From the NCBI GenBank assembly GCA_973895155.1, contig OZ316899.1, forward strand, positions 7,567,241-7,631,240: a stretch of DNA of 64,000 nucleotides, in the 5' to 3' direction. Of this stretch, positions 1,130 through 35,808 are shown one piece after another. The notes under the pieces were generated by a model. The model was given only the letters and a program-made list of their open reading frames with translations, had not been told where the DNA came from and did not search any database. Position 1 is the first letter of the stretch. Each line of letters opens with the position of its first letter. The position numbers and the translations under genes were made by a program. This stretch comes from Marsupella aquatica. Taxonomy: Eukaryota; Plantae; Marchantiophyta.

Positions 1130-1131
1130 AT

Positions 1132-1143
1132 TGGAATCAGAGC
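1132..1143 (+). promoter_or_regulatory. Primer binding site, tRNA-iMet type
   Basis: TGGAATCAGAGC, one mismatch to the canonical TGGTATCAGAGC, 2 nt after the LTR end. Confidence 0.85.
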
Positions 1144-6136: not shown

Positions 6137-6201
6137 CTAATCAAGATTGATACATATAGTTACAAGTAACACTACTAGGTAGTTAGCTGAGGACTAGAGC
6201 C

Positions 6202-8457: not shown

Positions 8458-8760
8458 CAAGGAACATTTTTAAAGTACTTCCCAAAAAGAAGAAATAATG
8501 TAAAGGGCAACCGCATTGCAAGTTACAAGGAAAACGTCAATCCCATCAAGGACACAAGGAATCATGTGATCAATTCTTCCATCAGCATGGAGGTAAACAA
8601 AAATTGTTTCAAAAGAAGTAAGTTGCTTTCCAAAGCAAAAGACTTAAAATGAAGGCTTGCTATTCTTTGTTCAAAAGTTGATTCATGGTATTGTGTCACA
8701 AGTATGGTTGATCCACTTGATTTCAGTGGAAGGATAGGACAAAGTTTTTTCATGCTACCA

Positions 8761-9721
8761 TGCGCCGCGCAAGGCGGTTCAGTCAGCGACATCTTTTGGT
8801 TAGGCGTAACGACAGAATAGTTGTCATTAGGCGCCGATTAGCGGCACAATAGGAAGAATTAGGACCGGATCAGTTAGGATCAGCCAATGTAGGATAGAGT
8901 CCATCAACGGACTAGATTTTGGTCAGTAGACTTAGCTGCTACCATTCCGGTCAGCGCCCTTGTTGTCGACGGTCAACCGGTCAGAGGAGTGCGGCCGGCT
9001 AGTCAGAGGGTAGTTAGTCAGTAGGCATTGCCTCGGAAGGTAGTATCTTCCGGTTCCTTTCCGCAACCGTAGTATTTAGGCTTCCCTTTCCGCTATGGGA
9101 GGGGGAGAAGGCTTAGTTATCTCAGCATAAGAAAAGGCGAGGCATGGGGAGTCCCGACCTGAACAGGGTCAGAGCGCACCAAGGAGTGAGAGCCAGAGTT
9201 GAGCTTGCTGGGCAAGTGCAGGGCGGGGCCTCGTAGAGACTGGGCATCGACTGCCGTTGGGCCTGCTGACCCCCTTAGAAATCGAGTCAACTATGTAAAC
9301 TGATTCTTCGCTGAGTAAATATAGTCTTTTCCCTCTAATGTTTCTGCAAGTAACTGGTGTTGTGTGTATGCTTTGTCTGGGCAAAGGCGCCATTTCAAGG
9401 GACGTACCGGGTGCGAACTAATGGTAGGGATTGCCACCCATTGCATGTCACAAGGTTCTATTGCGTTGATGGCTTGAAAGCCCCAAGCCGGGAGTTAGTC
9501 CGAGTCACTAACTGTGGGAATATTCCAGCGGTTGAAAACAAATATACCTATGACTAGTACGAGTTGCGTGAGTGTTATACCAGTAAGTATATTGCCTTAG
9601 CCCGACTTAGTGCCAATCGAGGCCACTACACACCTCCTTGCCCAAACCCTCACCCCTACTGGTGGTCAAGGTCGCCCCATGGAGCTAAACTGGATTTAAG
9701 GCCCGGGTTAGGGGTGCGACA
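8761..9721 (+). repeat. 5' LTR of the Athila-like element
   Basis: Direct repeat of 18649-19608; starts TGCGCCGC, and similarity ends at ...GCGACA. Exact termini uncertain by a few nt. Confidence 0.9.
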
Positions 9722-9738
9722 TATGGCAACCGGTTTTT

Positions 9739-9756
9739 TGGCGCTAGATGGAGGGG
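9739..9756 (+). promoter_or_regulatory. Primer binding site complementary to tRNA-Asn
   Basis: TGGCGCTAGATGGAGGGG, one mismatch to the reverse complement of the plant tRNA-Asn(GUU) 3' end as I recall it (...CCCCUCCUUCUAGCGCCA). Confidence 0.7.
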
Positions 9757-9804
9757 GCACTCGTTTTGCCTTACGAGTGGAGCCGTGTAGTGAGCTATTA
9801 ACCT

Positions 9805-12800: not shown

Positions 12801-15800
12801 AAGGAGCTCCCCAAGGAGCAGCCGACAATCTGGGAACCTGTGGCCTACGATGGCACCAGACTCGAGGAATTGGAGGCCCATCTTGACCGGGCCACCAGAG
12901 ACCATGTGGATGTAATCCGCAAGGAACACTATAGCAAGTACACCACAAAGAGGGAGAGGACATTCAACGTCGGTTATGGCCTACGAGCCCCGGAGGAAAA
13001 GGCTATCCAAGAACTCCTATCAGAATATGAGGCCGTCTTTGCATGGAGTCATCGAGACTTAACCGGAATTTTGCCGGCCTACGGCGAACACGTCATTGAT
13101 CTAAACTTGGGTGTTCATGCCGTCCGAGAGAGACAACGAAGACTAAATCCAAGACATTCCATCTTGGTAAAGGAGGAGTTAGATCAACTGATCGTGGCGG
13201 ACATCATCTACCCCGTCTTATCCAGCGAATGGGTGTCCCCCATTGTGGTGGTTCCTAAGAAGGTAGGGCCCGATGGTAAACCCAAGATTCGAATATGCCA
13301 GGATTACCGAAAGCTCAATGACGCTACTCGGAAAGACCATTACCCACTCCCCTACACGGATATGGTCCTTGACATGGTAGCCAGAAATGAGCTATACACC
13401 TTCCTGGATGGATATTCAGGTTATAACCAGATTTGGATTAGACTATCGGACCAGCTCAAAACTACGTTCATCACGGAGTGGGGAACCTACGCATTCAGAC
13501 GGATGCCCTTTGGCTTATGCAATGCCCTGACTATGTTCCAACGATCATTATGAATATTTTTCATGATTTCCTACAAGAATTTTTGGAGGTCTTCATAGAC
13601 GATTTTTCCATCTTCAGAACAATTGCTCAGCACCCAAAACACCTGAGGTGGACTTTTGAGCGATGCCGAGAAGTAGGTTTGAAGTTACACCCGGGTAAAT
13701 GCTTCTTCGGGGTAACAGAAGGAGTGTTGCTCGGACACCAAGTATCCAAACGAGGGATTGAGGTGGACCAAGAAAAAGTGGCCACTTGGATGAATGTACC
13801 TTACCCAACGGACCAAAAGGCGGTGCGATCCTTCTTAGGCTGCGTAGGTTACTACCGACGATTCATTCAGAATTTTGCCAAAATAGCCCTGCCCCTTACA
13901 GAAATGATGAGGCAAGACGCAGTCGTGGAAATGACTCCACGCAGAGTAGCAGCCTTTGACGAACTAAAAAAATGGCTAACTATGGCTCCAATCTTGACTA
14001 CCCCCGATTGGAACAAGGAGTTCCATGTGTATGTCGACATATCTGGGTTTTGCATCGGGTCAGCGCTGAGCCAACTAGACGACGAAAAATGGGACCACCC
14101 CATTTACTTTGCGAGCCGACAACTGTTTACAGCGGAGAAAAACTATTCGCCCACCGGTCGGGAGGCCTTGGGGATCATCTACTCGTGTAAAAAGTTTTGC
14201 CATTATCTATTGGGATATAAGGTGGTATTCAATACTGACCATGACAGTCTGAAGTACATGGTAAACAAAGCGGACTTGACGGGGAGAATAGCCCGTTGGG
14301 TCCTGCTGCTCCAAGAATTTGACTACGAAGTCAGGGTACGACCTGGGAAGGCACACGTGAATGCGGACTTCTCAAGGATCGAAGGGGAATCGGACGACGC
14401 ACCTGTCGATGATGCATTCCCTGATGAAGAATTATTCCGCATGGAAACGGACCAACCGACGTGGTAGGGGACCTAATCACCTTCCTCTTAACGGCCCGCA
14501 TTCCAAGTAACATTAACCAGGAGGCCGCGTCAGTCTTCCTACGCAAGGCAGCACCCTACATGATGATACGCGGACATCTGCATAAGGAGGGCGTCAATGG
14601 GAAGATCCGCAGATGCCTAGATTATAATGAGACGATCATTGTCATGCAAGCTATGCACGAGGAGGAGGCAGGGGGACACTTCACCCCGGTCACCACGGCT
14701 CACAAGATCTTGGATGCAAGTTATTGGTGGCCTACGCTTCATCACGACGTAGCCCATTTCATCCAAGGTTGCAACTTGTGTCAGCGCGCGGGCAAACCCC
14801 GCAGATTAGGTAACATCCTCTTACCCCGATCTTTCCCCTTGCCCCGTTTGAGAAATGGGGCATTGATTATATCGGACCATTCACCCCAGTAACTCGAGGT
14901 TGGTGTTGCCGGTACATCCTTCTCGCTATTGACTATTCGACTAAATGGGTAGAGGCCCGGGCAACGGTCAAGGATGACACGGCCACCACCGCCAGGTTCC
15001 TGTATGAATAGATCTTCATCCGTTTTGGACCTCCCTTGGAGTTAGTCAGCGACCACGGGAATCATTTTTTGAACAAAACAGTGGAAAAACTGACTGACCG
15101 TTACCTCGTCAAGCACAGGAAGACTACCCCTTACCATCCCAAATGTAACGGATTAGCAGACCGGGCTAATGGCATCATAGGAAAAATCCTCAACAAAACC
15201 GTAGCTGCCCACAAAATGGACTGGGACGACAAGCTTTTCGCGGTGGTCTATTCATACAACTTGGCGTTTAAGACTACTACAAACCATAGTCCATATTTCT
15301 TGGTATTCAGACAACATGCGCTTGTACCCATCGAGTTCAAGGTCGAGACTCCTCGGGTGAGCATCTGCCATAGGTTACCGGAGGATGCTAGTTTGTCCGA
15401 TCAAGCATATAAGATTGACAGTCTAGAAGAACAGAGATTGTGGGCATCGCGATGCGTGGCTGCCAAGCAGGAAGCAACAAAGAAATAGCACGACAAGGGA
15501 CTGCGCTAGGTGGACATTGCTACGGGATATCTCGTCCTTTTGTACGATAGTATGTACATGTACTTTCTAGGAAAGTTACACACACGCTGGCTGGGACCTT
15601 TCATTGTCCAGCAGATGTACCCGAACGGATCCCTCCAGCTATCAACGTACGCCGGCGACCTCTTTCCCAATCCAGTTAGTTACGATTGTGTGAAGATGTA
15701 CTTTCACGAGGATGACAAGCATAATGATGTTCGCGAGGATGCTTCACACTTGAGTGGGGAGCTATGTGACACGGGTAACGTGTCACTTAACCAAACGCAG

Positions 15801-15812
15801 GTCATAGATTAG
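9805..15812 (+). pseudogene. Gypsy gag-pol (retrotransposon Gag, zinc knuckles, aspartic protease, RT, RNase H, integrase), disrupted
   Basis: Motifs: FKGRPTDDPDEWL Gag, CSKCYQSGHVVQEC and CYNCEKPSHFARE knuckles, VLVDGGSRVNIM protease, VFIDDF RT, TDHDSLKY RH, HEEEAGGH..CNLCQ and TPYHPKCNGLADRAN integrase. Confidence 0.92.
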
Positions 15813-16290
15813 GTCTTATGCGATCATTAGGACCGTAGCCGTAGCGTAGAATAGCACAAATAGCCATCTTTGCCATTATGAATAGATTAGGAGTAGGTTA
15901 GTGGATCAGATGATTACAAATTAAAGTAGAGGGTTATTACGCTCGACCGCGGTACGGTGGCGGCGGTGGAGTAAAATCCGTTAGAAGAATCACGCTTGGA
16001 CCGAGATGCCGACTTCTGCTCATCATCAATGACCGGAACAACCTTGCCCACTCACGCTTGAAGCTCACCTTGGCACCTCCATAAGAGCGGAGTCGATGGC
16101 GTTGCGGGCCATTTGCTCATTTCTACCTTTCAAAATTCGCGGACGCTGCCATTCTCTCGCCTTCTTGCTCGAATCAAGCTGACCTTTACGAGGAGATCAT
16201 TGAGGGATAAGAGCGGGTTGTGGCAAGATTTAGTCAGGGCAAGGAAGACCTCCACCAGTAAGCGGACCAAACAGCGGGAATGCGGACTCG

Positions 16291-17030
16291 ATGAACCAGA
16301 CTACAAAGGTTAGTATGACCCTTACAGCCTTGGGATTCTGGACCTTGTTTGGCGAGGTAGGTGCTAAGTTCTCCGAGACTTACTGGTACTCTTGTCCCGA
16401 GAAAGCCGCTTACGAAAGAAGATACGCAAAGTTGGTGGCCAAGGTAGCGCAGGTTAACTATGAGAAGACAGCTATCACCAGGGATTCCAGCTACAATGAG
16501 CTGCGATACTACATCACCGAGCTATATCTCAGCGAGGAAGGGCTTAGATCGGTAGCAGAGGCGATTCTTGAAGTCCCCGCGAAGTTCTTTAGGCTGAAGG
16601 GCAGCCAGCGGCTTACTCAAGCGGAGTAAGATCCCGGGGTACCTAGACCAGCATATCGCAGCCGAAAAGCACCAAGAAGACATCAGCAAACAACGGGAAG
16701 CGGCGCGTAATCTTACGTTTCTGGGAAAGCTCCAACGCCTTCAATTGGGATATGGCTACACCGACCCCACCAGCCCCTCAGCCGATGACCACTGGCGTAC
16801 CCCCGAACCAGTCCCAAGTCCGTCCTGTGAACAACACCGAGTGTTCTTTGGGTTCCTAGCGAGTTAGTCCGCATCTCAAGCAGCATTCTTGTAAGCGGGC
16901 AGGGACGACGCCGACCCCCAAATTGACAACGCAAACCAACGCCGCTCCTGCACCTGCCCCGACTAACCCCCCGACCAACCAGGCCCGACGGCCATCGGAT
17001 AATCCCAAGTCTAACTTATTATAGGTAATC
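16291..17030 (+). pseudogene. Accessory ORF A of the Athila-like element, unknown function
   Basis: 112-aa ORF with probable decayed continuation; lies between the integrase and accessory ORF B. Confidence 0.4.
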
Positions 17031-17099
17031 CGCGTCCCCAAGGTAGTCTGGATCGCAATCAAGAAACTCGACCACGCGGACTACCTCAAGGAGCATCAG

Positions 17100-18622
17100 T
17101 TGGAGCAGTTCGCTCACTTGCTATGGAGACCGTGCACGGCCGGGCCAAAGGAGATTTGTGAGTTCATCTCCAATTTTGACACTAACGCATCAACCACCAA
17201 GGTTTCAAGACAGACCTTATCACTCATGGAGCATCGGATGGCACAGATCTTTTGCCTGCCAACCGGGCTGGTGCCGGTTGAACTCCAAATTCGGGATAAG
17301 GAGTATACACCTCGACACTTCAACCCGAAGGTAAGACGGACAACGGATACAAGCAGAGATCGTGCACCAACTTAATCTGCAGGGAGCGGCTTAACTTCAT
17401 ACGGACTACCCTACACATGATTGAGCCACGATCCGAGATCTCCCTCTGCACAATCGTGCAGGTGGAACTGTACAAATGGCGGAACTGGGCCCAATTCTTT
17501 TACCGAAGGTTCTTGGGGGAGCTTAGGTGGGCTCAGGGAGGTATGGCTATTGGGGGGAAGACTTACTTGGGAAGTCATATCGCCATCATCCTCGCCTGGT
17601 ACAAGGCACGGCGGGAGGCCAGAGGAAAGAATATGGCCACCTCAGCCCCAACTAATGTCACCCATGCTCCAAGGGAGGCATCCCCAAGCGAGCGGACTAC
17701 CGTGCCTCGGCCAAACCCCGAGCCGGAGGCCCCGACTAGTACTCCGTCACCCCCTCCTGCTGAAATTCCGCTGCCCCCTTCCGTTGAGCCTCCGCTACCC
17801 GCAGTACAGCCACCCCCAATCCCTCCACCACCTGAAGAAACCTTTCCTTCCCAAGTGCAGACTACAGAGGAGCTCACCACCCTGCCCGAGGAACCACCGG
17901 TACCCAAGAGGATGGAGGACTACCAAGTAGCCCCGGAGACCATGGCCTACGACCTGGTCCAGAAGTTTAGTCAGACTTTGTCAGGGGAGCTGGCGATGTA
18001 CATCGGACAACAAGTCTCGGCGTACTTTCAACCAGCCTTCTTCATGTTAGAGCACCAACCACGGATTGTAAGCCGCTTGGAAGAAGAACTCATGGCGAAG
18101 GGGAATGAGATCGGGCGCCTCCAAATGCTGGTAGAACACCTCGAGGAGGAGGCCACTACCCGTCGTGAGGAGTTAGTCCGCACCGTCGAACAGCGGGACG
18201 GACTAACCCAAGAGTTGAGCAGGGCGCAAGCAGATCTCAAGAAGCTGGACAACACCATGCTTCAGTTGCGCTCGGAATCCTTGGCTCGGGTTACCAGCTT
18301 GATCGACCTCAACAACCAATTCCTACAAGCAGCTCAGCAGGTGGCTAGTCTCTCCGCCAAACGGGATAAATTGCTGGCGCAAGACCAGACCCATCGTGAC
18401 TCCATTGACCAGCTCAACCTGGAGGTAGCACGGCTCCAGATCAAGGTCGATGAAGCTGCAAACAAGGCGAAGGAGGCTCTGCAGGACAACAAGGCCTTAC
18501 AGGACCGCATTACCCTGCTCGTCCTCCAGCGGGGAAGACCTGGGCCCACCTCTGATCAAGGCGGCTCGAGGTCTCGCCCCGACAGGGGGACAAACCCTGG
18601 TCCGACCACGGCTCACACGTAA
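17100..18622 (+). pseudogene. Accessory ORF B: Athila-type accessory domain, Pro-rich linker and long coiled coil
   Basis: ORFs 17100-17375 and 17417-18622 (401 aa) joined by a frameshift. NWAQ motif, PPP-rich tract and a heptad-like E/L/Q-rich region. The stop lies just before the PPT and 3' LTR. Confidence 0.7.
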
Positions 18623-18648
18623 GAGGTGGTTAGCAAAGGGTGGAAGCA

Positions 18649-19608
18649 GGCGCCGCGCAAGGCGGTTCAGTCAACGACATCTTTTGGTTAGGCGTAACAA
18701 CAGAATAGTTGTCATTAGGAGCCGATTAGCGCCACAATAGGAAGAATTAGGACTGGATCAGTTAGGATCAGCCAACGTAGGATAGAGTCCATCAATGGAC
18801 TAGATTTTGGTCAGTAGACTTAGCTTCTGCCATTCCGATCAGCGCCCTTGTCATCAACGGTCAACCGGTCAGAGGAGTGCGACCAGATAGTTAGAGGGTA
18901 GTTAGTCAATAGGCATTACCCCGGAAGGTAGTATCTACCGGTTCCTTTTTGCAACCGTAGTATTTAGGCTTCCCTTTCCGTTGTGGGAGGGGGAGAAGGC
19001 TTAGTTATCTCAGCATAAGAAAAGGCAAGGCACGGGGAGTCCCAGCCTGAGCAGGGTCAAAGCGCACCAAGGAGTGAGAGCTAGAGTTGAGCTTGTTGGC
19101 AAGTGCGGGGCGGGGCCTCGTAGAGACTGGGCATCGACTGCCGTTGGGCCTGCTGACCCCCTTAGAAGTCGAGTCAACTATGTAAACTGATTCTTTGCTG
19201 AGTAAATGTAGTCTTTTCCCTCTAATGTTTCCACGAGTAACTGGTGTTGTGTGTATGCTTTGTCTGGGCAAAGGCGCCATTTCAAGGGACGTATCGGGTG
19301 CAGACTAATGGTAGGGATTGCCACCCATTGCATGTCACAAGGTTCTGTTGCGTTGATGGCTTGAAAGCCCCAAGCCGGGAGTAAGTCCGAGTCACTAACT
19401 GTGGGAATATTCTAGCGGTGGAAAACAAATATACCTATGACTAGTACGAGTTGCGTGAGTGTTATACCAGTAAGTATATTGCCTTAGCCCAACTTAGGGC
19501 CAATCAAGGCCACTACACACCTCCTTGCCCAGACCCTCACCCCTACTGGTAGTCAAGGTCGCCCCATGGAGCTAAACTGGATTTAAGGCCCGGGTTAGGG
19601 GCGCAACA
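18649..19608 (+). repeat. 3' LTR of the Athila-like element
   Basis: Direct repeat of 8761-9721, preceded by purine-rich AAAGGGTGGAAG. Confidence 0.9.
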
Positions 19609-20142
19609 CCCTCCAATAGACAAGAACTGCGTCCAGAATCGTATGGCCAAACTGGAAAGGATCATGTGCGACATTCAGAGGAGATGGAAGGCGACTAAAG
19701 ATAAGCAAGAGAACTAGGGTCGAAGCTGGCGCGTGGACTGAAGAACTGGTGCACTGCAAAGGATCAGCCCCCTTTTTATACCCTGAGAGCTCGTCAATCG
19801 CCCGTCGCCTCCTCATCACTTATAGGCCGAGCCTTTCACGCTTGCAGTGTACCGACCACTCCGCCAGTCTGGGTCAGCGAGTGTCAGTGGCCGCCTCCCG
19901 AAGTTTGTTATACGGACCCGAGGGGGAAAGGGGAGGGCCCATTACACGCTCGCAACCCGGGCGTGCGAATGGCAACCCGCCGCCAGCCCGAATACAAACG
20001 CCCCTTATTGACTAATGATTTTCTACTCATAATGGCTACCTAAATACTGTCATTATGCTAATAATTACGGCCTAAGATACCTCTACTATGCGTGCTAAGC
20101 GTGTTTAGGCCGAATCATTTATTAGCCACCATACCGGCAACA
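19609..20142 (-). mobile_element. Truncated LTR (U3/R part) of another retroelement
   Basis: On the minus strand it starts TGTTGCCGG at 20142 and has a strong TATAAAAAGG near 19771-19781, followed by a CT-rich leader. It is cut off at the Athila-like 3' LTR. Confidence 0.5.
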
Positions 20143-20147
20143 TCACA

Positions 20148-20214
20148 GCCATACTCACATACATGCATAACATGGACAAGAGCATACACAAATACAAGAT
20201 AGTGTACCGCAACT
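20148..20214 (-). repeat. 67-bp repeat A, outer copy (identical to 20629-20695)
   Basis: GCCATACTCACATAC...GTGTACCGCAACT matches 20629-20695 at 67/67 by eye. Confidence 0.92.
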
Positions 20215-20581
20215 GAAATCCGTGAAAGACATAGTGTCATAAAACACGTAAGAACACACACAGTCAAGCCAAACCCACTCCGCAATGGAGAATCTAGCCA
20301 GGTCAAAGCTAACGGGACACCATAGCCAAGGAGCTCCACTCACTACCAAGGCTCTCCCAACGCCAAAGGCTCAACTCAAAGAACTAACCGTCCTTTGAGC
20401 CTCTCCACACTATACCCTCCAACCCTAAGGGCGGGTCCTACAAGAGGAGTCACCCTCAACAGGGCACCCCCTCTAACCCTCTACCATGGAACCAAACTCC
20501 TAACTAGGCACTACGGCCCATCTAAGGTATGGACTCCGCTAGCACACTACATAGTCTAGCACGCTACGTATGGTCATGACA
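20214..20581 (-). repeat. 3' LTR core (repeat B) of the DNMT-Gypsy
   Basis: Matches 29618-29979 with about 9 substitutions and 2 small indels. Confidence 0.92.
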
Positions 20582-20864
20582 GCTGTCGTGCGAATCCACA
20601 TCATCATACAACATACATCGCTGGTCATGCCATACTCACATACATGCATAACATGGACAAGAGCATACACAAATACAAGATAGTGTACCGCAACTCGCCC
20701 CCCTAACTGGCGGTTAGGTCCCTCTAACTCCCAGGTAGCCCTATCCATCTACTACATGCTATACACCTTCATGGGTGCATTGATCAGAAAGCCGGGTGCT
20801 ATGTTGCCCCATTGTTAATCGCCATCTGTAATCCATACCATGTGAAGATCAAGTCATCCACCTC

Positions 20865-21010
20865 CTAAGTACACCAAGGACAAACCCACCGTCCAATAGG
20901 CACAACATCAATAGGTGGAGTTAAGCATGACATATGCCAACCCCTAGAACACCTATCACAAACCAACATACGAGCTGCTTCACTAGTAGACCCACACAAC
21001 ATGCACCTCA
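20865..21010 (-). pseudogene. PHD finger at the integrase C-terminus
   Basis: CMLCGSTSEAARMLVCDRCSRGWHMSCLTPPIDVVPIGRWVCPWC is a canonical C4HC3 PHD with the conserved LxPP and W. Confidence 0.92.
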
Positions 21011-23850
21011 AGCTAGCACGTATCACTACCAAGATGGGGTCTACTGTACCATCCACGTTTGGGAGGTGACATGGCGCACAATTACGCACATGGTCCTTCC
21101 AAACAACACCATTATGACCCTCCAACATGAGAACTCCAGAAGCTAACACCTCTCTCACACGTAAGATAGTGCATCCTGCTGTCACATCCAACGTTGTTGC
21201 TGCAAATAGACATAGTCCCCCACATGGAACCTACAAATGGATGGTCGATAACCTCCACCCCGGATGGTTGCATAACGCAACGTATCTGTGTGTTGAGCAA
21301 TGGCAAGGTTCTCAAAGGCTGTTGGCATAACTCTTTGAAAGAGCTGTGCCCTTTGAGAACACACCCTCATCCACACCTCCGGGTCATCAAGGTTCACCAC
21401 CTCACTAGAATCTCAACAAATTTTTGTGGGCAAGTCTGGGTCTCAGCCGTACAACAGAAAATAAGGTGAGAAGGAAGCCAAGGATGCTTGATCATGGCAA
21501 TTGAATGTCCCAATCTCCAAGATGCCCCTTCTGTAGGCCATACTTGCATAATCCCCTCTTCACCGTCTGAACAACATGCTCTGCCAAACCATCCGCCTCT
21601 GGATGATCTCGAGATGTGGTCCGATGATCAATCAACGCCTTGTCACACAAGACCTGAAACTCACCCTGAAACTCCGTACCCTGGTCGGTCAACACCTCCG
21701 CTGGTGCACCAAAATGACTTAGCACTCTATCAAGAAATGCATACGCCGTTCCCTCACTTGCCTTGTCAGGAAATGCCACCAACTCAATCCACTTAGAAAA
21801 GTGCTCCATCATCACCAACACATACCAATGATGTCATCTAGTTAACGGTAATGGTCCTAAAAAGTCCAAACTCCAACGGTAACCCAACCCCATAATAGGT
21901 AAGGGGTGTAACTGTGGTGTAGGGGCATTGAACGATGCCCTCACCCGATCGCAAACCATACAATGTGACACCAACTGTTGCACCTGAGTGTGCATGCCAC
22001 GCCACCAATATTGACCAAGAAGTAAGCTATACGTACGCTTTACTCCAAAATGTCCCAACTCCTCATGAGCATGTCGCACAATGCGCTCTCTCTGAGCTAT
22101 ATGGGGTACCACTCGTACTCTACCATCCTCCCACACACGGAGAACATGTGTTCCCTCCAATCGGTACCTCCTAGCACGTTGGAGAACACAGTCTCGCTCC
22201 TTGGCACTCATTATGCCTGGCACCCTACTGGTCCGTAGGAACTCTAACACCAACGCATCATCATGAATATCACGCTGATCTGTAGGACCATCTCCAACCT
22301 CCGGATCTGCAAGCTGGCCATCTACCCTCTGACTAGAGGAAGGTGTAAGGTGATCCTCCATACTAGAGTTCACACCCAACAAACACAAAAAGGCAGATGC
22401 ATGCCATCCTGGCACCATCTCCTCATCAACCTCTCCATGTCATCTAGCTCCAGTATCATCCTCCTGACTAGGACATGGGTTCCTACTCAACCCATCAGCA
22501 TCAAGGTTGGTAACTCCAGGTCTATGTACCACCTGAAAGTCATACTCCTGTAAGATAAGAGCCCACCGTGCAAGCTTTCCTATAAGCTTATCAGACTCCA
22601 TCAACCACTTGAGCGGTTGGTGATCAGTAACAAGGGTAAACTCTGTGCCAAACAAGTAACACCTGAAGTGTGCCACAGCCCACACTGCTGCCAAGCACTC
22701 TCCCTTGTACGAACCATAGCTTGATTCTGCTGCATTGTTTGAACGACTTGCATAGGCCACCACAAACTCCTTGTTCTCATCATCATGTTGTGTCAACACC
22801 GCTCCAATCCCCAACATACTCCAATCAGTGTGCAGTTGAAATGGGTGACCCCGGATAGGTCTCCTCAAGATAGGCGCAGACACCAACTTGGCCTTGAGCG
22901 CCATAAAAGCTCTCTCCTGGTCATCTCCCCACTGCCACTCCTGATCAGACTTCAACAACTTGTTCAAAGGCTTTGCTGTAGCACTAAATCCCTTCACATA
23001 TCGCCGATAGTAGTTCGCCAATCCCTTGAATGCCCGAACTCTACTCACATCTGTCGGCCAAGGGATACGTGCAATAGCCTCAACCTTTGCCTGTTGGACC
23101 CCTAAACCACTTGGGTAGATCACATGACCCAAGTACTGAACATCCTCATGGAAGAACCTACACTTTCCTGGATGTAAACGTAGACCATGAGCTTTCAATC
23201 GCTCAAACACAATCTGCAAATGTTGTTGGTGCTCCTCCACAGTATCACTGAACACCAAGATATCATCAATGTAACACCGAACAAAATCCAATCCTGCTAG
23301 GATCCTGTCCATCACTCTTTGAAACTCGGCAAGTGCATTCTTCTGAAACCCAAAGGGTAAGAATTGCCACTGATACAAACAATCCTTGCCATATGAGTTG
23401 ACTCCCCAAAATGCTATCTTGGCCTTGTCACTCACTCGAATAGGCAACTGATGGTATCCTGCCCGAAGATCCAAAGTACTGAAAATCCTTGCATGTCCCA
23501 CCACATCAAAGATCTCCTCAGGTGTGGGCATGGCATACTTATCGGCCTTTGTCTACCGATTGATAGGACGGTAATCTCCACACATCCACCTCTTTGTGTA
23601 GTTGCCATGCACATCCTTTTTGACAGGCATGACAGTGACTGACGCATACTCCCCATGCGACAACTCCACTAATCCAGCCTCCAAAAGGTCCAACGTCTTA
23701 CTCCGAATCAAGTCCCTCTCCATATCACTATATTTGTAGGGACGACGAAAGATTGGCGTATCACTAGCCAAATCAATCCGTATACCAGCCAAAGCACCCA
23801 ACTCCTTCATTCTAAAGGCAAAACAACTCCTATAAGCACATAGGAATTGT
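21011..23850 (-). pseudogene. RT, RNase H and integrase of the DNMT-Gypsy, disrupted
   Basis: Motifs: CGDYRPIN, FSTLDLRAGYHQL, CYIDDILVFS, LHTDWS, VTDHQPLKWL, HEELGHFG..CMVC, WSLDF, LTDQGTEF, HPEADGLAE. Confidence 0.95.
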
Positions 23851-24169
23851 GTGTGTCAACCGTCGTCTTTCACCTCCTGTCAGCTTAGGTCCAAGTGATG
23901 GCTCCCAGGTCTCCTCTACCGGTACACTAGAGGAAGAGGACGACGCCATTGGTTTCTATGCCACCTCCTCAGACGATGGCACATGCTCCTTTACACCATC
24001 ATTTGAGCAAACAACTCCTCCACTAGCATGGGCCACCAACTCTACATGCCCATCCATCACATCCCATGTACTCCAAGGATGCCTCTACCATCCTGGAAGG
24101 CAACGAGCTCATCACCAGGCGTGAAGTAACCACAGACATGGTCCTAAGTCTCCGCTGCTCGGCCATCGC

Positions 24170-25110
24170 AAGGCTCACAATCCATGTCAAACAGTTCAAG
24201 TCCATAACCTGACCCAACACCTGGCGATGTGATGCCTCTGAAACTGAAGAGACTAATGTCACACCGGTAGGAAACCCCATAGCACGCTCTCTCTCATCAA
24301 CGTTGGGCTCCACCAACTGGCGCACATGAGAATCCCATACAAGCCCAAGACCACCATCCCTATAGGCATGTGATGAGGGAAAACTCACAAATGTAGGCAA
24401 AGCCATTCTAGGCTGCCCCACAAGGTTCAGTATTGCCATGGGTGACCTATCCACCGCTCTCACCACCTAAGAACGTCGTCCACCATCCAAAATACTATCC
24501 ACGGTGAGAGATAGAGGCCGCTGGATTGCATCATAGGTGCGCCTCAAAAGCTCCCTGGGTAACAAGTTTGTCCACCACAACAGTGGACGATGTGCACGCG
24601 AGCCCACCCTCGCTGCATCCAACAAAATAGCTGGCCCAATCCATGACCGTACCTCATGTGCAGCCGTGATCACATGAGATCTAGTATCACCCAACAAAGG
24701 GACGTTCTCCATAATGTAAGTTGGAGCACGTGCCTGATGCACTTGAAGATGACGCAACACCCGCAACATCTCCCAAAACATATGAGAACAAGGGTCACGT
24801 AACCCTCCACCATGACCAGCCCGAGTATGTCCCTGACATGGCCATCCAGCAATCACCAAATCAATAGGGCCAACCCTCTCAAGGTCTTGCGACCCAACAA
24901 TGAAATGTCTGATGGCAAACTCTGTTGATACCCCCAAATTGCGGACTGTGACAACAACTTAGGGTATCTCTGCATCATCAATGCAAGATGTCGTGATGAA
25001 ACCCTCCTTGCAGTCTCATCTCTCTCCACATACAACTACTTCCTCACAGGTATCCCGATCAGCCAAACCAGTGCTAATCCCACCAAAGAGGTCCAACACA
25101 CAAATACCCT
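24170..25110 (-). pseudogene. C5 cytosine DNA methyltransferase domain (Dnmt3-like) embedded in pol
   Basis: Motifs in canonical order: I VLDLFGGIST, II YVERD, IV IDLVIAGWPCQG, VI YIMENV, VIII GSRAHRPLLWWTN, IX ERERAMGFP, X RQVLGQVMD. Broken by a small deletion, frameshifts and stops. Confidence 0.9.
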
Positions 25111-26337
25111 TTGGTGGATACTCCCAAACAATGGGTGTTGTATCCAAAGGAGACAACCCCACTGGACCACCAGTAGGAGCTCGTCTTGGATCCTCTACCT
25201 CCACAGGTACAAAGGGTGTACTCCAAGCGTGTGATATCAAATGATCAGCCTTCTGCCTCAACACTCCACTTGAACTCCAAAGTGGAACATCCAACAAGGA
25301 GGGTACCACTGCCGCCAAACTAAAGACCTCCTCTACCTCCTCATAGACTGGAGAATCCACGGCTAAAAGGTTACCCTCCAACAAATCCCCTAGCCAAGTG
25401 ACCACTCCACTAAAACCAGCAACTGATGCCAATACCTCTTGGGAAGTCCCTCCTGGTCTAACCCCAGAAATAAATCTCACATGCACTTGGCTCAAACGTC
25501 CATCACCAGACTGCCAACCAGGTCTAAAGGCTGTTGTCTCAATCCAATAGTCCATCTGAAAACCCATCGGGTACAACACTGCACCTCCAACTAGTACATC
25601 ATACGACTTTGCTGATGTCACCACAACAGTCACTCCTAATGTAGAGCTATCACTCGCATGATCTGGCCTCATCTGCACTGACACCCTCTCCCATGTCATG
25701 AAGTGAGACCTATCACTGGCTCCTCCAAGTGATGTCTGAATCTGGAATGGGCATGGCTCCAACTCTGACCTCCGAATACCCAAACCAATACAAGCTGCCT
25801 TCCCCAACATCAAGGTTGGACACCAGAGTCCAACAACACCCTCTCTGGTCTACACACCTGTCCTGAAGGACTCACCAATCGAAAGACACCAGTCTGGTTG
25901 TCCAACATACATACTCCAGGTGTAAGCCTCTCACGATCAATGGCTGGTCGGGCTGGTAATGCATCCATCCTCGCCGCTGCCGCCTGCCAAGTAGCATTGG
26001 TACTTAATGCAACATCTGACACTAAGGGTTGCTCAACAACAACACCCTCACACACCTCAGCACTCGTAGCAGCAACACTCCCACGTTCACACAACGTGCC
26101 GGCTAGCTGAAATACGCGAGTCATGTCAACTCCTGAGGCCATCAACTCAGTTGCTGAAAACAATGAGGATCCTAATATTGAGGTTGCCATCCGCAACACT
26201 GCACTAGAGGCTACATCTATGTCTACTACATGTGATGTAGATGCCCCTGTATCCACTATCGGCTCAACAGGTCTCATAGGAACCATGGATGGAGTCCTAA
26301 GCACCTCTGACAACAAGAATGACTGGGGAAGCCTAGC
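25111..26337 (-). pseudogene. Aspartic protease region of the DNMT-Gypsy pol
   Basis: VLLDSGVQP catalytic motif and SYDVLVGGAVL flap-like motif; frameshift at ~25812. Confidence 0.8.
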
Positions 26338-27969
26338 CTACCTCCCAGCCTCACCCCTCTGTGGGTCCAACTCCACAATGGCACCACGTGGCTCTGAAGC
26401 TCTAGCTGCACCTCTCGTCAATGCAACTGATGCCTCAACTTGTGCCGCACTCGCCATATAAGAGAGATCATTGCCCCCATAAGACGTGAAAGCCCCTGCT
26501 CCCAAACCTGCTCGAGGTGGAATACCAGCCATAGTAGCAAGTTTTTGCTCCAATTGCTCAATCCTATCCGCCATAGCAGCCTCTGTTGTAGGGGGAGGGG
26601 CAGCCACTATAGGCGCTCCAACTGCTGGTGGACCTCTACCACCCCTACCACCTCTACCAGCTCCACCACCTCGGCCTCTCTGAGGTGCTCCACCACGACC
26701 TCGACCACCCATCCTCAACTCTGGGTATAGGTCAAAACAACGGTCTCGAGGATGACCTGCTCGACCACAATGATCACACTGCACCTGGGCCGACTGAGAT
26801 CCATCCTCTAAACTCCATCCTCCACTCTCCTGGGGACAAACCCTCCGGACATGATCACCTCCACATGTCCAACACACTGGTCCTTGTTGTTGGGCAGCAT
26901 ATGAAGGCAACGGTCTCTGCACACTCGGCCCTCTGGAACCTGATTGAGGTCGTGCCAAATCTCCACAACTCCCACTACTACCACCACCACCACCACTATG
27001 AGACTGTAAAGTGGCTGGCTGAACACGAGAAGTAGTGGTCATATCCCTATTGAATGCCGATGTCACTACCCTCTCCTCCACCATGTTAAGCTCAATCTTC
27101 TCAGCCAAAGCAAACACACGGGACAACGTGGGTGGATCATCACTCATCAGAGTAGCATCACGTACCCTCCTCCGCAACTCTCTGTCCAAAATCCCATACC
27201 AGAACTGGATTGCCTGCGCCTCAGTCACACCCTGGGTAACTGAAATCAAACGCCGCATACAAGTGTATGCCTCACGAAGACTCTCACCAGTCTTTCTCTC
27301 AAACTCCTGAAGTCTCCTCAACTTCTCTATCTTCACCCCCTGGTAGTTCTTCTTCAATCTCTTGAAGAACTCTATAACTGGGCTGAACAAAGGTGGAGCG
27401 CTAGTGCCTCCACTAGTGCCTCCACTGGTGCCTCCACTAGCACCTCCACTAGTGCCTCCACTAGTATCAACACCACCCTGAGTGATAGACACATAGGCTG
27501 GAGACCAATGTTGTCTCCATGCCTCAATCTCAACAGCATGGTCCTTCCGGAACTGATGATAATCATCCATGGGAGGCCCCTCCAAGTGCTGAAACAACCC
27601 CTTCCATGCCAAGAAAGGTGTAAATAATGTGGCGTTACGCAACATCTGCATATCACACCATTTATCAAACTCTTGAATGAAGTCCTCCAACTCAATGGTG
27701 CCCACTGCCCCTGAGTAATGTCGTGGGCCCTTCATGGCCCCGTACATCCCGTCCATATCCCAAATCAATGGGGCTGCTATACTGGACAATACAATTGAAG
27801 ACTTGATGTTTGGAACACCCTCGTCCTCCTCCTCATCAACTAACAGTAGTGGAAAAGGTAGCCGATACCTCAATCCACTCTGTGTAAAACCACCAATGTA
27901 TGCACCAAGGTCCCCAACAGGACCACCAAACTGCTCCGTGATGACAAGCCGCAACAGCACCACCACCAA
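26338..27969 (-). CDS. Gag of the DNMT-Gypsy (open 543-aa frame)
   Basis: GESLREAY retrotransposon-gag motif, two CCHC knuckles (CWTCGGDHVRRVC; CDHCGRAGHPRDRC), RGG-rich tail, and a 12-bp tandem (GGTS)n at ~27401-27465. Start codon uncertain. Confidence 0.85.
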   Translation of the reverse strand: MVVVLLRLVITEQFGGPVGDLGAYIGGFTQSGLRYRLPFPLLLVDEEEDEGVPNIKSSIVLSSIAAPLIWDMDGMYGAMKGPRHYSGAVGTIELEDFIQEFDKWCDMQMLRNATLFTPFLAWKGLFQHLEGPPMDDYHQFRKDHAVEIEAWRQHWSPAYVSITQGGVDTSGGTSGGASGGTSGGTSGGTSAPPLFSPVIEFFKRLKKNYQGVKIEKLRRLQEFERKTGESLREAYTCMRRLISVTQGVTEAQAIQFWYGILDRELRRRVRDATLMSDDPPTLSRVFALAEKIELNMVEERVVTSAFNRDMTTTSRVQPATLQSHSGGGGGSSGSCGDLARPQSGSRGPSVQRPLPSYAAQQQGPVCWTCGGDHVRRVCPQESGGWSLEDGSQSAQVQCDHCGRAGHPRDRCFDLYPELRMGGRGRGGAPQRGRGGGAGRGGRGGRGPPAVGAPIVAAPPPTTEAAMADRIEQLEQKLATMAGIPPRAGLGAGAFTSYGGNDLSYMASAAQVEASVALTRGAARASEPRGAIVELDPQRGEAGR

Positions 27970-29606
27970 ATCACCACCACTAATTAACCAAGTAACGTCG
28001 ATGTTGCGGTTTACTCTAGCCCTAATAGCTACATGGGTGTGGGCAACCTAACCTGTCATCACCACAAGCAACCTCCCATGGTCTACTGGTCATTACTCCA
28101 GTCTCACCGTGAGAGAAACATAGGTAGTCCGATTGGTCATCACTCCAGCCTCACTACTGGCAGCACACTGGAGTAAAACTACTTCGGAAATCAGCGTCAG
28201 CCCTAACAATGGGCGCGCAAGCAAGAAGCATCAATGGAGGGGATCCAAACACAGGAAGTCCAATGACAACCCTCCAATCGCAAATGAAATACAAAACGGA
28301 AATCAAGGTAACACAATCCACCAACCGTGGCGCCCCCTGAATCCACAAAACAAACCACACAATCCTAATGCAATGTAGCTACTCCGCTAGTAGTCTATGA
28401 TGTGCTCCTTGCACTCCCAGCATTTGATAATGTCACCTGCATGGAAATGCTATCCACCACCACCCGCTAGGAATCCCAAAATGGGTCCTAACGCAACCTA
28501 AAACGATGCATATATGGGGAAAACGTCCAAATATTACACCAATTCCTCTAAGGCAGTCTATACACTAGCAGAATTCAGAACCTGCCAGTTAAGCTTCTTG
28601 TAGGCAGAATAGGGCAAAGATGGGTGACCAGTTATGCAACACAATACTCACAGAAACTACTCACAAATCTGCAAAACTATCTCACGCCCAAGCTTGCTTG
28701 CTTGCTCCCTTACTCCTTTTCTCCCCCTCTCACGCCCACTCACCCCGAGCTACCACGAGTTGCCTCGAAGCCTCAAAACGCCGAGAAATGCTCGAGACAT
28801 GCCCCTTTCGCCCCAACTTGCTCTGCCACGCTACGCTACGAGCAAAGCGTCCCCAACATGCAGGTTTGCTATCCACCATAGCCAGGCCTTGAGCTAGTCC
28901 ACAAAATTTTGATCTCTGATTACTCCGTGAATCCTCAACGAAAAATGAATCTGTCTAGACCAGGATTCAATTGGCCACCATAGATATCTCTCAAAAAGAA
29001 ATCAACTACAACTGAGGTCTGTACTTTGAGCTAAAAATCGGACAACATTTCGGCCTATACATTTCCGAAAGCACAGCGCTTTTGCTCATGATCTATGAGC
29101 CACAACTAGGACAGCGCTTTCGCGCCACTGATCACACAACACAGATCTGCAACTCTGTCATCCAGATCTACTACCAACGCACTGAAATCCGGCAGCGCTT
29201 CCGCATAGATTCATCAATACAGAAATCTGCATCGGTCCCTCTCTAAACAACAATTCGCTCCACACCAGAGCTAAATAGTTCTGCACGATTGAATTGATGT
29301 TGCAAATCAGACAAAGATCAACATCAAAAACCTCTCACCCGATCTGGATGACTTCCAAGAGAGCTTTCGCACTCAAGCTTTCCAAATCTGAAAAACCGTC
29401 GAACACAAACCAGATTCTTCATTCTTCGATTACTTCCAACTCGCTTGACCAAACCAGGCGATCTTTAGTGCGTTGGAAAGCTCTCAGCAATGCGCTTCTT
29501 CCCCACCCATACACGGACCAGATCCACAATGTATCCATGGCTGATGCTATCAAGCAGCCCACCAGATCCTACTGATCTCCGATCGAAGTTACAATCGATC
29601 ACTATG

Positions 29607-29617
29607 AGTTCTTTGAG
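29607..29617 (-). promoter_or_regulatory. Self-priming PBS: 11 nt complementary to an LTR-internal sequence
   Basis: On the minus strand CTCAAAGAACT directly follows the 5' LTR. Its complement AGTTCTTTGAG lies in the LTR at 29785-29775, 26-29 nt downstream of a TATA (29814-29811). No TGG tRNA-type PBS. Confidence 0.8.
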
Positions 29618-29979
29618 TGAAATCCGTGAAAGACATACTGTCATAAAACACGTAAGAACACACACAGTCAAGCCAAACCCACTCCGCAATGGAGAATCTA
29701 GGTTGAAGCTAACGGGACACCATAGCCAAGGAGCTCCACTCACTACCAAGGCTCTCCCAATGCCAAAGGCTCAACTCAAAGAACTAACCGTCCATTGAGC
29801 CTCTCCACACTATACCCTCCAACCCTAAGGGCGGGTCCTACTAGAGGAGTCACCCTCAACAGCACCCCCTCTAACCCTCTACCATGGAACCAGACTCCTA
29901 ACTAGGCACTATGGCCCATCTAAGGTATGGACTCCGCTAGCACACTACATAGTCTAGCAGGCTACGTATGGTCATGACA
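29618..29979 (-). repeat. 5' LTR (repeat B) of the DNMT-Gypsy
   Basis: Direct repeat of 20214-20581; TG...CA ends. Confidence 0.92.
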
Positions 29980-33522: not shown

Positions 33523-35808
33523 CTACCTTTTAGGAACAGTCATTAAATCAACTACCACAACGCTAATATTGTCACTACTCCCACGAGCTAATGCAAGTTT
33601 AGTTAGAAGAGCAGCAGCTACAGCTGCTGGAGACTCTTCTATTTCTTCATTACTAGGAGACTCATTAAGATTTGCAGAGATGTTACTGCGGCGATGACCA
33701 GCTAGACATTTACGTGCTATATCACAAACGACTTCATTAGACAGCACATCCCATAAACCATCACTCGCCAGTATCAGGCATTCATCCTCCACCGTGCGCT
33801 GAGTGCAAGTTACCTCAGGTTCAGCTATGACAAAGGGTTTCAAGTACCGATCACCTGCACAGAAGGAAATTAACCAGAACATGAGATGACGAGAAGGAAT
33901 TTGACTTGCAAAATGATACTGGTATCCTGATCTTCCTATCCATATTGCCATTTTAATTGCTTTCTGACATATCTTCCAGCAGAGTGAAAACATGTAACAT
34001 CTGCACAAGGGTTGTGCGTACTGTTTACCATTCTTTCCCACAAATAAAGCACAATGCGGCCAGATTTTAGTCCTCAAAGGTCTCGACTCATACCAATAGC
34101 TCTTGACATCGCAAGAACACCAAGCACTCGATAACCATTCCAAAATATGACGCGGCCACCGGCAGCCTCTACTCGAGCCATTTCATCTTCTCGATCAGGC
34201 TGCAGCAAGTAGTATTGACCACCTCAAGTTAAATGTGACCTATGCCTCTACTTGACGAAGCAAAGACTCTGGAGTTACCAAATCTGAAGTAACCTCGTGT
34301 CATAAGCTCCCAGACTAGCCAACAGCAACAGAATATAATTTCTTGGATAATTCCTCATCCAGGCACCAATGTATAAGTATCATTTACCTTGTGATCCTGA
34401 GAGAGAGCTATTGCATGACCTCCACGAGATAGCACAGCACGAGAATCCCCACAATTCGCAATGATCAACTGGCATGAGCTCACAACAGCCACCACAGCAG
34501 TGGAGCCTACTGTTTCGGGAGCAATAGGGTCTGTACAACATTTAGCACTTCCTTCTGGTTTGCCACATTGCCCTCCTCGCCAACAGACACCTCCAACTTC
34601 AGCGTCCATCCTCAAGAAACAGGTCAACATTGCTTTCTTCCACTTAAGATCCCAACTGTCAAAACCTGAGGGAGTGCTTGCGTTTTTTGTTACCGCAGTC
34701 ATCTCCTCTGCTAACATGTGATGCAGCCGATCTGCACAATATAAAGCTGCCTGTACAAATGCAAAGAAGTAACGTTTGATCATATGCCAGGTGTTCAGTC
34801 CGATACTAATTTGATACAATGCTGTAACACCTATCCCTCATGGTTATTATCGCAGAATTCAACACCTGGCCTGACAGGAATCAAACAACTGACCTGAGAA
34901 CCTCCATGCCCGTCGTAGACTCCAAAAAAGTGAAAATAACTGAAGCAAGGGATTCTGCAGTTACATTGGGCTGTGTCACAGGGAAGTAACAGAAACGAAG
35001 GAACGGAAGCAACAGCATCTTCCATCTCTCGCCGCCGCCCACACACCGAAACCGACCCATGCGGTGGACATTGTTCATCGGCAGCAAAATCCAGGCTAGC
35101 ACTGGAGCTTGATCCTGAGAACTTCACACTTGAATGACATTGATCGACTCTGGCTTGTGACCCTTGCCGATTAAGAGGTTGACCCTCAACTTGGTGACTG
35201 TCAATAGTAACTTCCTCCTGCACTGAGCTCTCGGTAGCACTTTGAACCGTCTGAGTAGCATCTGCTGTCCAGGTAACAGATGATCCCCCTTCTACCTCAT
35301 TGCTCTCAAGACTCGTACTGGTGCTGTCACTACTAATACTACTACTGCCGCTGCTTGTACTGCCACTTCCGCTGCTTCCGCTTTCATCTTCTCCACTGCT
35401 GCTGTTCTGCACGCTGTTGGCCGTCGAAGGCCTTTCCCAGTTCGAAGATGGAGCTGCACCATTATGTCTTGTCATGATCTCGCCACCTTCATATTTCAGA
35501 GGACGCCGCGGATGACTGTCACGCCTGCTCTCATCGTTGTCTACAGGATGCCGTAAGACAAAGTCATTCTCAGATTTACACAGAGGACTCAGTTTCCGCT
35601 CATTGCAAGACATGCAAGACTGGTCGTTTACAGACCGTGAGCGCTTGTTTACGGGCTCCAAAAAAGCACCCGAGTTAGCTATCAGCTTGAAACGTCTGAT
35701 TTCCATCCTCCGGCGCCGTGCTGCAATAGCACCACCCTCAGATGGGAACGATTCGTCTACGAAAGAATATGCGCTTCCGTACAGATCAGCTGCAGCTAAT
35801 GTCTCCAT
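33523..35808 (-). CDS. Clade A protein phosphatase 2C (ABI1/PP2CA-HAI-like negative regulator of ABA signalling), ~571 aa. Exons 35808-34894, 34750-34388, 34199-34094, 33854-33523; alternative in-frame ATG at 35847
   Basis: GT-AG introns give a continuous frame (915+363+106+332 nt). Motifs: [85 protein letters not shown] (receptor-binding Trp present), [23 protein letters not shown]. Confidence 0.95.

Follow-up and report, generated by a model that had tools for sequence, protein, structure and literature searches.

A Ty3/Gypsy retrotransposon that encodes its own DNA cytosine methyltransferase (DNMT) is present in the genome of the liverwort Marsupella aquatica, within a stretch of 64,000 nucleotides of contig OZ316899.1 (assembly GCA_973895155.1, positions 7,567,241 to 7,631,240 of the forward strand) that is referred to here as the window. 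The element is a decayed copy that occupies positions 20148..29979 of the window on the minus strand and contains, in this order, Gag, protease, DNMT, a stop codon, reverse transcriptase (RT), RNase H, integrase and a PHD finger. We assign it with high confidence to a DNMT-bearing family of green-plant Ty3/Gypsy elements, probably the same lineage as KnitGypsy-Dnmt3, which de Mendoza et al. (2018, PMC5890265) described in the charophyte alga Klebsormidium nitens. A wider reading can be built on this assignment, in which a Gypsy lineage as old as the green plants carries a DNMT3-type domain and a PHD finger from chlorophytes to bryophytes, produces the DNMT at Gag level and integrates obligatorily through an internal end-to-end palindrome from circular or end-joined complementary DNA (cDNA), both at least in land plants, methylates itself as part of its replication, and has jumped between liverworts and peat mosses. 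As a package this reading is tentative and more likely wrong than right.

The element and its methyltransferase

The first open reading frame (ORF1, 23959..27756, minus strand, as for all parts of the element) encodes gag, protease and DNMT and is broken by three frameshifts and three stops. It is colinear with the Marchantia polymorpha gene model Mp4g09160 (P0123), with about 64% identity, and contains two zinc-knuckle-like Cys-x2-Cys motifs (26767-26874), an aspartic protease region (25460..25880, LLDSG at 25822-25839) for which relatives give Asp_protease_2 matches, and a DNMT3-type C5 cytosine methyltransferase domain (24150..25110) with two frameshifts and two stops. The part that follows encodes a Ty3-type RT and RNase H (22443..23855; Ty3 RT E 4e-63; YIDD at 23262-23273), an integrase with an H2C2 zinc finger, a DDE core and a C-terminal part (21200..22100), and, at the end of ORF2, a PHD finger (20868..21005) with Pfam and PDB matches. 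In the window, the Pfam matches RT_RNaseH (2e-35), RVT_1 (6e-25) and Integrase_H2C2 (1e-16) all exceed their cut-offs, and rve scores 46.5 bits (5e-12). The order gag-protease-RT-RNase H-integrase, with the DDE integrase downstream of RNase H, is that of Ty3/Gypsy elements. The first-pass annotation, made from the DNA sequence alone, had called this copy dead, which agrees with the six frameshifts and eight premature stops counted against open-frame relatives. It had also located the DNMT in pol between protease and RT; the domain indeed lies between LLDSG and YIDD, but not inside an uninterrupted pol, because it ends ORF1 and a family-conserved stop (23956-23958) precedes RT.

All seven C5 methyltransferase motifs that had been read from the sequence are found in canonical order on the minus strand between 24209 and 25099, namely motif I VLDLFGG (25079-25099), II YVERD (25018-25032), IV GWPCQ (24833-24847), VI MENV (24701-24712), VIII SRAHRP (24584-24601), IX ERERAMGFP (24269-24295) and X RQVLGQ (24209-24226). 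The Pfam DNA_methylase profile, a check set beforehand as critical for the methyltransferase claim, gives a clear match (E 1.9e-8, 34.6 bits, cut-off 22). A PDB search with the DNMT segment of the window, in which one stop was read as X, returned DNMT3A as best match, and a profile built from 26 family members scored 56.5 bits against DNMT3A and 49 against DNMT3B, compared with at most 25 for DRM, HhaI, HaeIII and DNMT2. The AlphaFold model of a relative 77% identical to the window segment (P0004) has a predicted local distance difference test (pLDDT) value of 94, and among the Foldseek matches listed from its top 50 only DNMT3A/B/C occur, with a TM score of 0.84 to the top one. Together with the linear order of motifs I to X, the catalytic cysteine and the E-N-V triplet, which characterize DNMT3-type enzymes, the PDB, profile and fold matches uphold the early typing of the domain as DNMT3-like and non-permuted, and not DRM.

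The DNMT is under purifying selection. The catalytic cysteine is retained in 168 of 169 aligned domains, and the ratio of nonsynonymous to synonymous substitution rates (dN/dS) of the domain is 0.13 in the open-frame pair L067-L069 (RT 0.04, integrase 0.03, PHD 0.04) and has a median of 0.24 (range 0.175-0.51) between the window and 59 mostly decayed loci. Motif IV reads E-C instead of P-C in many relatives (GWECQ in 59/176). In a midpoint-rooted DNMT tree that comprises element domains only, the family and the K. nitens element fall in the same half, with support of 0.77-0.86. A viral origin was considered and is unsupported, since phage matches are distant (24-31% identical among 15 listed of 582) and none of the 125 pattern matches in viral contigs was a relative.

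Relatives and their spread in green plants

All family searches used the DNMT as bait, so that members without this domain are uncounted. Protein searches returned 212 relatives of near-complete length and 39 longer ones, including proteins named from Marchantia polymorpha, M. paleacea, Riccia sorocarpa, Calypogeia fissa and three Sphagnum species, with 63-75% identity for the best relative of each of these four genera, as well as a Chromochloris protein (P0159). A profile search of 1.84 billion representative sequences gave 389 matches with E<1e-30, the best 150 of which were inspected; Klebsormidium nitens GAQ93235, three Closterium proteins and two Scenedesmus proteins are named among 30 clusters that were looked up. 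In 80 metagenome loci picked by their DNMT match (L-numbers), RT lies at most 1.5 kb from the DNMT in 55 of 58 informative loci, and integrase and PHD finger each accompany it in 25 of 27. The DNMT thus occupies the same position across many genomes and is a feature of the family and not of one insertion. Relatives with open frames were also found, in line with the early suggestion that intact ones may exist: in M. polymorpha Mp4g09160 the gag-protease-DNMT frame (ORF1) is uninterrupted and runs colinear with that of the window, and the divergent locus L067 (976-8226) holds open frames of 1369 and 1047 codons, with TAG-CAG-TTA as their sole separator and the same junction as the window (see below). 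The M. polymorpha models Mp4g09160, Mp8g17980, Mp6g11220, Mp2g26090, Mp8g15430 and Mp7g09570 match the family (P0123, P0124, P0129, P0134, P0160 and others) and appear to be pieces of DNMT-Gypsy elements.

Two architectures can be distinguished. The DNMT precedes RT in elements that, where named, belong to streptophytes, and the order RT-RNase H-DNMT-integrase-PHD is found in elements that, where named, come from chlorophytes. The second arrangement occupies a single ORF (P0154-P0159, P0336-P0472; e.g., Scenedesmus P0400 and Chromochloris P0159); 28 of the best 150 of the 389 profile matches show it completely, and 60 have RT or RNase H ahead of the DNMT. The DNMT of these proteins frequently goes undetected by Pfam, their motif IV commonly takes the form GWECQ, and some of them carry a G-patch or Tudor domain. 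An RT tree built from 66 elements unites the 15 that have the DNMT first in one clade, with support of 1.0. Distances of DNMT and RT are correlated over all 66 elements (rho 0.72) and within groups (0.91, n=13; 0.51, n=42), and the DNMT co-diverges with RT. The 66 elements together form a clade (0.994) against an outgroup made up only of fragments of three non-DNMT Gypsy elements. To judge from these trees, the DNMT-Gypsy elements fit a single old lineage, the alternative being two separate captures of the domain.

Positions 20149-27945 of the window align continuously over about 7,960 bases with the Sphagnum-type copies L066 and L062, at 78% identity and with the non-coding ends included, and the synonymous divergence (dS) between the window and Sphagnum-type copies is about 0.6, which is low for the moss-liverwort split. 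The similarity of the window copy to the Sphagnum-type copies, in identity and in dS, may point to horizontal transfer.

A conserved stop after the methyltransferase

The stop that separates the DNMT from RT is conserved as an in-frame TAG, and in the window it forms with the next six bases a predicted readthrough site (23950..23958). Proteins of Marchantia, Calypogeia, Sphagnum and others end 120-126 residues past motif IX, and an in-frame stop is found there in 59 of 63 DNA sequences, followed by CAR in 56. Contexts in relatives are TAG-CAA-CCN, TAG-CAA-TCA or TAG-CAG-TTA, with the full CAR-YYA in five sequences that include the divergent L044, L067, L068 and L069. UAG-CAR-YYA is the type I readthrough motif described in tobamoviruses (PMC3542737). 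Because this conserved, readthrough-type stop ends the ORF right after the DNMT, Gag-protease-DNMT is likely the abundant product, with the DNMT made at Gag level, and RT-integrase-PHD would be produced through readthrough.

Repeats, predicted priming and the end-to-end junction

The ends of the element had been taken for LTRs (long terminal repeats) about 3% apart. The divergence was well estimated, as A1 (29618..29979) and A2 (20214..20581) differ in 9 of 362 aligned bases (2.5%; 353 identical) plus two indels, but they are not a plain LTR pair and belong to an A-body-B-GC-A-B arrangement. Repeat A1 is the 5' end of the element, starts with TGTCA, as 19 related loci do, and ends with TTTCA. 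Repeat B1 (20584..20695, 112 bp) ends in CGACA and is directly preceded by the polypurine tract (20696..20708), which does not adjoin A2. A2 is joined directly to B2 (20148..20214), at the same B start as after the polypurine tract; 67 of the 112 bp of B2 remain, and the 3' end and the target duplication are lost in this copy. A plain A1/A2 LTR pair was rejected, since A1-A2 is not flanked by a target duplication and relatives end at B, and its 75-85% conservation across loci led us to reject B as a duplication of host DNA. The two identical full LTRs with a polypurine tract beside the 3' LTR that typify Ty3/Gypsy elements are therefore not what is found. Tf1-type elements, too, carry ordinary LTRs, unlike the present family. 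The DIRS-like A-coding-B-A-B repeats reported for KnitGypsy-Dnmt3 are present (PMC5890265).

Relatives start with TGTCA and end with CGACA, and 4-bp target duplications are exact in seven of nine two-ended loci and have one mismatch in the other two. The relatives thus show the TG...CA termini and 4-5 bp target duplication of Ty3/Gypsy elements, and the window copy lacks its 3' end. Integrated copies run from A to B. At the internal B1-GC-A2 junction the two end sequences of the element meet head to head in the palindrome GACA-GC-TGTC (20578..20587). The B1|A2 junction GACA-nn-TGTC is found in six Sphagnum-type loci, in the window and in the divergent L067 and L069, nn being GC or a C-to-T/G-to-A derivative. 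Palindromic LTR-LTR junctions, as on 2-LTR circles, are cut by foamy-virus integrase (PMC1180852). Unbiased opening of a 2-LTR circle is disfavoured here, as it predicts A-B-A-body-B copies and these occur in none of 20 5' ends; under a circle model cutting would have to be biased or joining one-sided.

No tRNA primer site was seen, the sequence past A1 having no TGG. The predicted primer-binding site (29607..29617), which lacks a TGG start and is not tRNA-like, consists of the 11 nt past A1 and is a perfect complement to 11 nt inside A1 (none of 500 shuffles matched this). These inner 11 nt (29775..29785) are the predicted self-primer and RNA 5' end, about 27 nt past a TATA-like box, with the predicted RNA start at the AGTTCTTTGAG site, about 170 nt ahead of the end of A. 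A self-priming complement of 9-14 nt is found in 10 of 20 A1 copies, some of which are the same insertion seen twice. The complement past A1 is a signature of self-priming of the Tf1 type, in which the primer site is complementary to the element's own 5' RNA (PMC4600332).

Thirteen loci stop at B1 (L020, L024, L025, L036, L040, L041, L045, L046, L047, L059, L072, L073 and L076). Five of them also hold A1, four with exact 4-bp duplications and one with a mismatch. Copies that lack A2-B2 have no repeat at their ends and would be overlooked by LTR finders. In the window, an LTR-like fragment that starts with TGTG and contains a TATA-like box (19609-20147, minus strand) adjoins the truncated B2 and may have cut it; the remainder of B2 was not found in the 64-kb window.

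The PHD finger

A PHD finger closing the integrase had been claimed from the sequence, and the Pfam match at 20868..21005 (E 1.7e-10) confirms it. Its best PDB matches are the PHD fingers of CHD4, PHF12, KMT2C/D, DPF2/3, KDM5B PHD1, ATXR5, PHF21A, UHRF1 and AIRE, which mostly read unmodified histone H3 tails. The description of the element as a writer plus reader should be used with caution, as the PHD finger sits past the conserved stop, at the C-terminus of the integrase. Because it closes the integrase beyond this stop, the PHD finger more likely steers integration than the DNMT. Fusions of PHD fingers to transposable elements are known in general (10.1101/2021.11.30.470311).

A possible role in replication

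These features can be assembled into a replication cycle. The DNMT would be synthesized in amounts like those of Gag, enter the particle, be released by the protease and mark the cDNA before or at integration. Reverse transcription would prime itself in a Tf1-like manner from the 11 nt past A1, and plus-strand synthesis from the polypurine tract ahead of B1 would yield a linear B-GC-A-body-B-GC-A DNA, whose ends may be joined in a circle or by an end-to-end template jump. The integrase would then open the GACA-GC-TGTC junction beside the primer site, and the internal junction would therefore be a heritable master copy of both ends. The PHD finger, judged by its likeness to known readers, would bind the unmodified H3 tail and bias integration without steering the DNMT. 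For the chain as a whole, including expression by readthrough and self-methylation of new cDNA by the DNMT, we lean slightly towards acceptance. Methylation of packaged cDNA is the most likely role of the domain on the indirect evidence of its position in the polyprotein, the selection acting on it and the activity of a DIRS-borne Dnmt3, which methylates CG de novo in yeast (PMC5890265).

Several observations weigh against this cycle or parts of it. The CpG observed/expected ratio of the element is 0.43, versus 0.47 in the neighbouring Copia, 0.32 in CACTA and 0.78 in the neighbouring Gypsy element, and CpG depletion was rejected as a signature of self-methylation, being no stronger than in Copia and CACTA. 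The KnitGypsy domain of Klebsormidium gave no methylation in yeast, a result that its authors consider inconclusive (PMC5890265). An in-frame ATG lies 6 nt past the stop and the stop context is mostly CAA-CCC in the window and in Sphagnum-type copies, so that reinitiation is possible instead of readthrough, and two Closterium proteins, P0328 and P0474 run from DNMT into RT with no stop. As regards the ends, 10 of the 20 decayed copies have a short self-priming complement or none, the A-B-A 5' ends expected from unbiased opening of 2-LTR circles are missing from all 20, and the 13 loci listed above lack A2-B2 and end as A-body-B or body-B, for which a normal product, recombination or assembly collapse may be responsible. 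Finally, the nearest proteins of 74 among 81 sequences are those of Sphagnum, so that most loci represent one family and not independent cases, and the DNMT-only bait leaves members without the domain out of all counts.

Other roles of the DNMT have to be weighed against methylation of the particle cDNA. The domain could act mainly on chromosomal DNA, either the element's own copies or host chromatin, in a self-limiting or host-manipulating manner. Predicted output at Gag level far exceeds the need of one cDNA, and in Marchantia met mutants transposable elements are derepressed, their non-CG methylation is increased and 'methyltransferase activity' is enriched among up-regulated genes (10.1101/363937), which we regard as a lead only. 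On the other hand, the position of the DNMT in the polyprotein suggests packaging and the Klebsormidium methylome is described as plant-like (PMC5890265), and we consider this explanation unlikely. Somewhat less probable still is a role in end-making, in which the DNMT would bind to GACA-GC-TGTC or methylate it and thereby shield one junction while the other is opened. The junction holds CAG/CTG, with CG sites nearby, it co-occurs with the DNMT from the window through the divergent L067 and L069, the alternative cut is seen in none of the 20 5' ends, and KnitGypsy-Dnmt3 and SymbioDIRS-Dnmt3 each combine a Dnmt3 with A-B-A-B repeats (PMC5890265). The proposal is nevertheless speculative, and PAT and Ngaro elements have split repeats while a methylase of unknown function is listed for DIRS and PAT and none for Ngaro in the source consulted (PMC7192593).

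That the domain modifies or binds element RNA rather than DNA is improbable. It is predicted to be co-expressed with Gag, and RNA methylation has been raised as a possibility for LINE-borne DNMTs that are inactive on yeast DNA (PMC5890265), but profile and fold indicate DNMT3 and not DNMT2, and the related DIRS-borne Dnmt3 methylates DNA. About equally improbable is that the DNMT rides along as a passenger or has a structural part in which catalysis does not matter. In favour of this, the dN/dS of DNMT in L067-L069 (0.13) exceeds that of RT (0.04) and integrase (0.03) and motif IV has the E-C variant in many relatives (GWECQ, 59/176); the strong purifying selection and the cysteine retained in 168 of 169 domains speak against it. 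Two further explanations, a single chance insertion of a methyltransferase from the host or a bacterium and contamination by an algal contig, can be dismissed given the same position of the DNMT in many genomes, the intron-bearing, liverwort-like phosphatase gene nearby (see below), and the low identity of the listed phage matches together with the lack of relatives in viral contigs.

Comparison with known elements

The closest described system is KnitGypsy-Dnmt3, which likewise combines an intronless, non-permuted Dnmt3 in a Gypsy polyprotein with A-coding-B-A-B repeats and purifying selection (PMC5890265). The intronless Dnmt3 in a Gypsy polyprotein and the purifying selection on it are also seen here. 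K. nitens GAQ93235 (P0404) has the order gag-protease-DNMT, matches the family profile with E<1e-60 and ends just past the DNMT (it is annotated as partial). The window is only about 40% identical to P0404, and KnitGypsy-Dnmt3 was presented as a lineage-specific capture in one charophyte with DIRS-like repeats, whereas the family described here extends to liverworts, peat mosses, Closterium and chlorophytes. A further difference is that the DNMT does not share an ORF with RT, given the in-frame stop in 59/63 sequences; P0404 too ends after the DNMT, and the published description of a single ORF may therefore be loose. The portions of PMC5890265 consulted do not mention a PHD finger, target duplications, the junction, the conserved stop or priming for KnitGypsy-Dnmt3, and Marchantia is not mentioned in its text and three supplementary files as available.

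Among more distant systems, SymbioDIRS-Dnmt3 also places a Dnmt3-type domain, active de novo on CG in yeast, in an A-B-A-B retroelement (PMC5890265), and differs by its tyrosine recombinase, in place of which the present family has a DDE integrase and 4-bp target duplications. The EpiLTRs of Cymbomonas and Euglena are LTR elements with methyltransferase writers and a chromatin reader, but these are DAM, a DNMT sister to DNMT4 and a chromodomain, and the preprint sets them apart from streptophyte Gypsy-DNMT3 (10.64898/2026.05.21.726589). Gypsy-7a_cRei of Chlamydomonas is a green-algal Gypsy element whose Gag-Pol includes a PHD finger and which inserts preferentially into intergenic DNA; compared by description only, it differs in that its domain legend lists no DNMT (PMC9940879). 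Tf1/Tj1-type elements share the primer site complementary to their own 5' RNA (PMC4600332, PMC6317226), plant Tcn1 elements differ by their chromodomains (PMC6317226), and PAT/Ngaro elements have split direct repeats and differ by their tyrosine recombinases (PMC7192593). Target duplications of the present family do not show the NCGN preference of Phygy. The host plant proteins PpDNMT3a/b have a DNMT3-type catalytic domain and differ by a C-terminal DUF3444 (PMC6453930), for which no match was obtained in the element proteins scanned.

A 2025 paper (PMC12344493) and a 2026 preprint (10.64898/2026.05.21.726589) place Gypsy-DNMT3 just in 'streptophytes', in the parts consulted, and there is no occurrence of PHD or methyltransferase in a plant LTR survey (PMC6317226) and a Physcomitrium transposable element paper (PMC7466625). 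Literature searches, incomplete for subscription papers, turned up no earlier description of these elements from a land plant or chlorophyte, and the only mention of split repeats combined with a DDE integrase that they gave is the 2018 legend (PMC5890265 Fig. 4c). The novelty claimed at first is thus lower in one respect, as the element probably belongs to the lineage of a published one, and broader in another, as this lineage spans bryophytes and chlorophytes. The concept of a DNMT-bearing Gypsy element and the repeat layout are already published for one alga. Apparently new, as far as the sources consulted go, are the spread in land plants and chlorophytes and the pairing with a PHD finger, together with three features that the first-pass annotation had missed, namely the stop in a readthrough-type context, the ends with their target duplications and internal end-to-end junction, and the signature of self-priming.

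Genomic neighbourhood

A four-exon PP2C phosphatase gene of the host (33523..35808, minus strand), which we take to be probably of the group A type of the abscisic acid pathway, lies 3.5 kb from the element and is not part of it. Its best named match is from Apopellia endiviifolia; identities are 74% to Apopellia (exon 2), 72% to Calypogeia, 68% to Marchantia and 64% to Sphagnum, and Apopellia also leads in summed tblastn bits (703, against 531 for Marchantia and 506 for Sphagnum). In two single-exon trees the window groups with Apopellia, one Calypogeia paralog and one further protein (bootstrap 78 and 80). These liverwort-like matches and trees bear out the claim that the genome is that of a land plant and not of an alga, and by themselves point to a likely liverwort. 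A second Gypsy element (8759-19608, plus strand) has 963-bp LTRs that are 94% identical and an extra 440-codon sense ORF without Pfam match ahead of its 3' LTR (17300-18622). A decayed Copia-like element (849-6576, plus strand), classified from ORF motifs alone, has LTRs of about 290 bp that are 92% identical. The window also contains Helitron remnants (38.5-42.7 kb), a fragment of an Ulp1-type protease (46.4-46.9 kb), a weak BRCT match (50.8-51.4 kb) and a CACTA element (52.8-58.9 kb).

Implications

The role of retrotransposon-borne DNMTs has been open since 2018, when the sole known Gypsy case was algal and its enzyme failed in yeast. Several M. polymorpha copies of the family are annotated as ordinary genes (Mp4g09160, Mp8g17980, Mp6g11220 and Mp2g26090), and in bryophytes such elements may distort both the number of DNMTs ascribed to the host and the interpretation of non-CG methylation, and standard LTR finders would mis-delimit them. 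Because methylation mutants of Marchantia derepress transposable elements, self-methylation is directly testable in this plant. The structure of the ends suggests an element with a DDE integrase that routinely uses an LTR-LTR-type junction as substrate, a route that is debated for retroviruses. If the proposed cycle is true, these would be DDE-integrase retroelements that regenerate their ends in a DIRS-like manner and in which self-methylation is part of replication.

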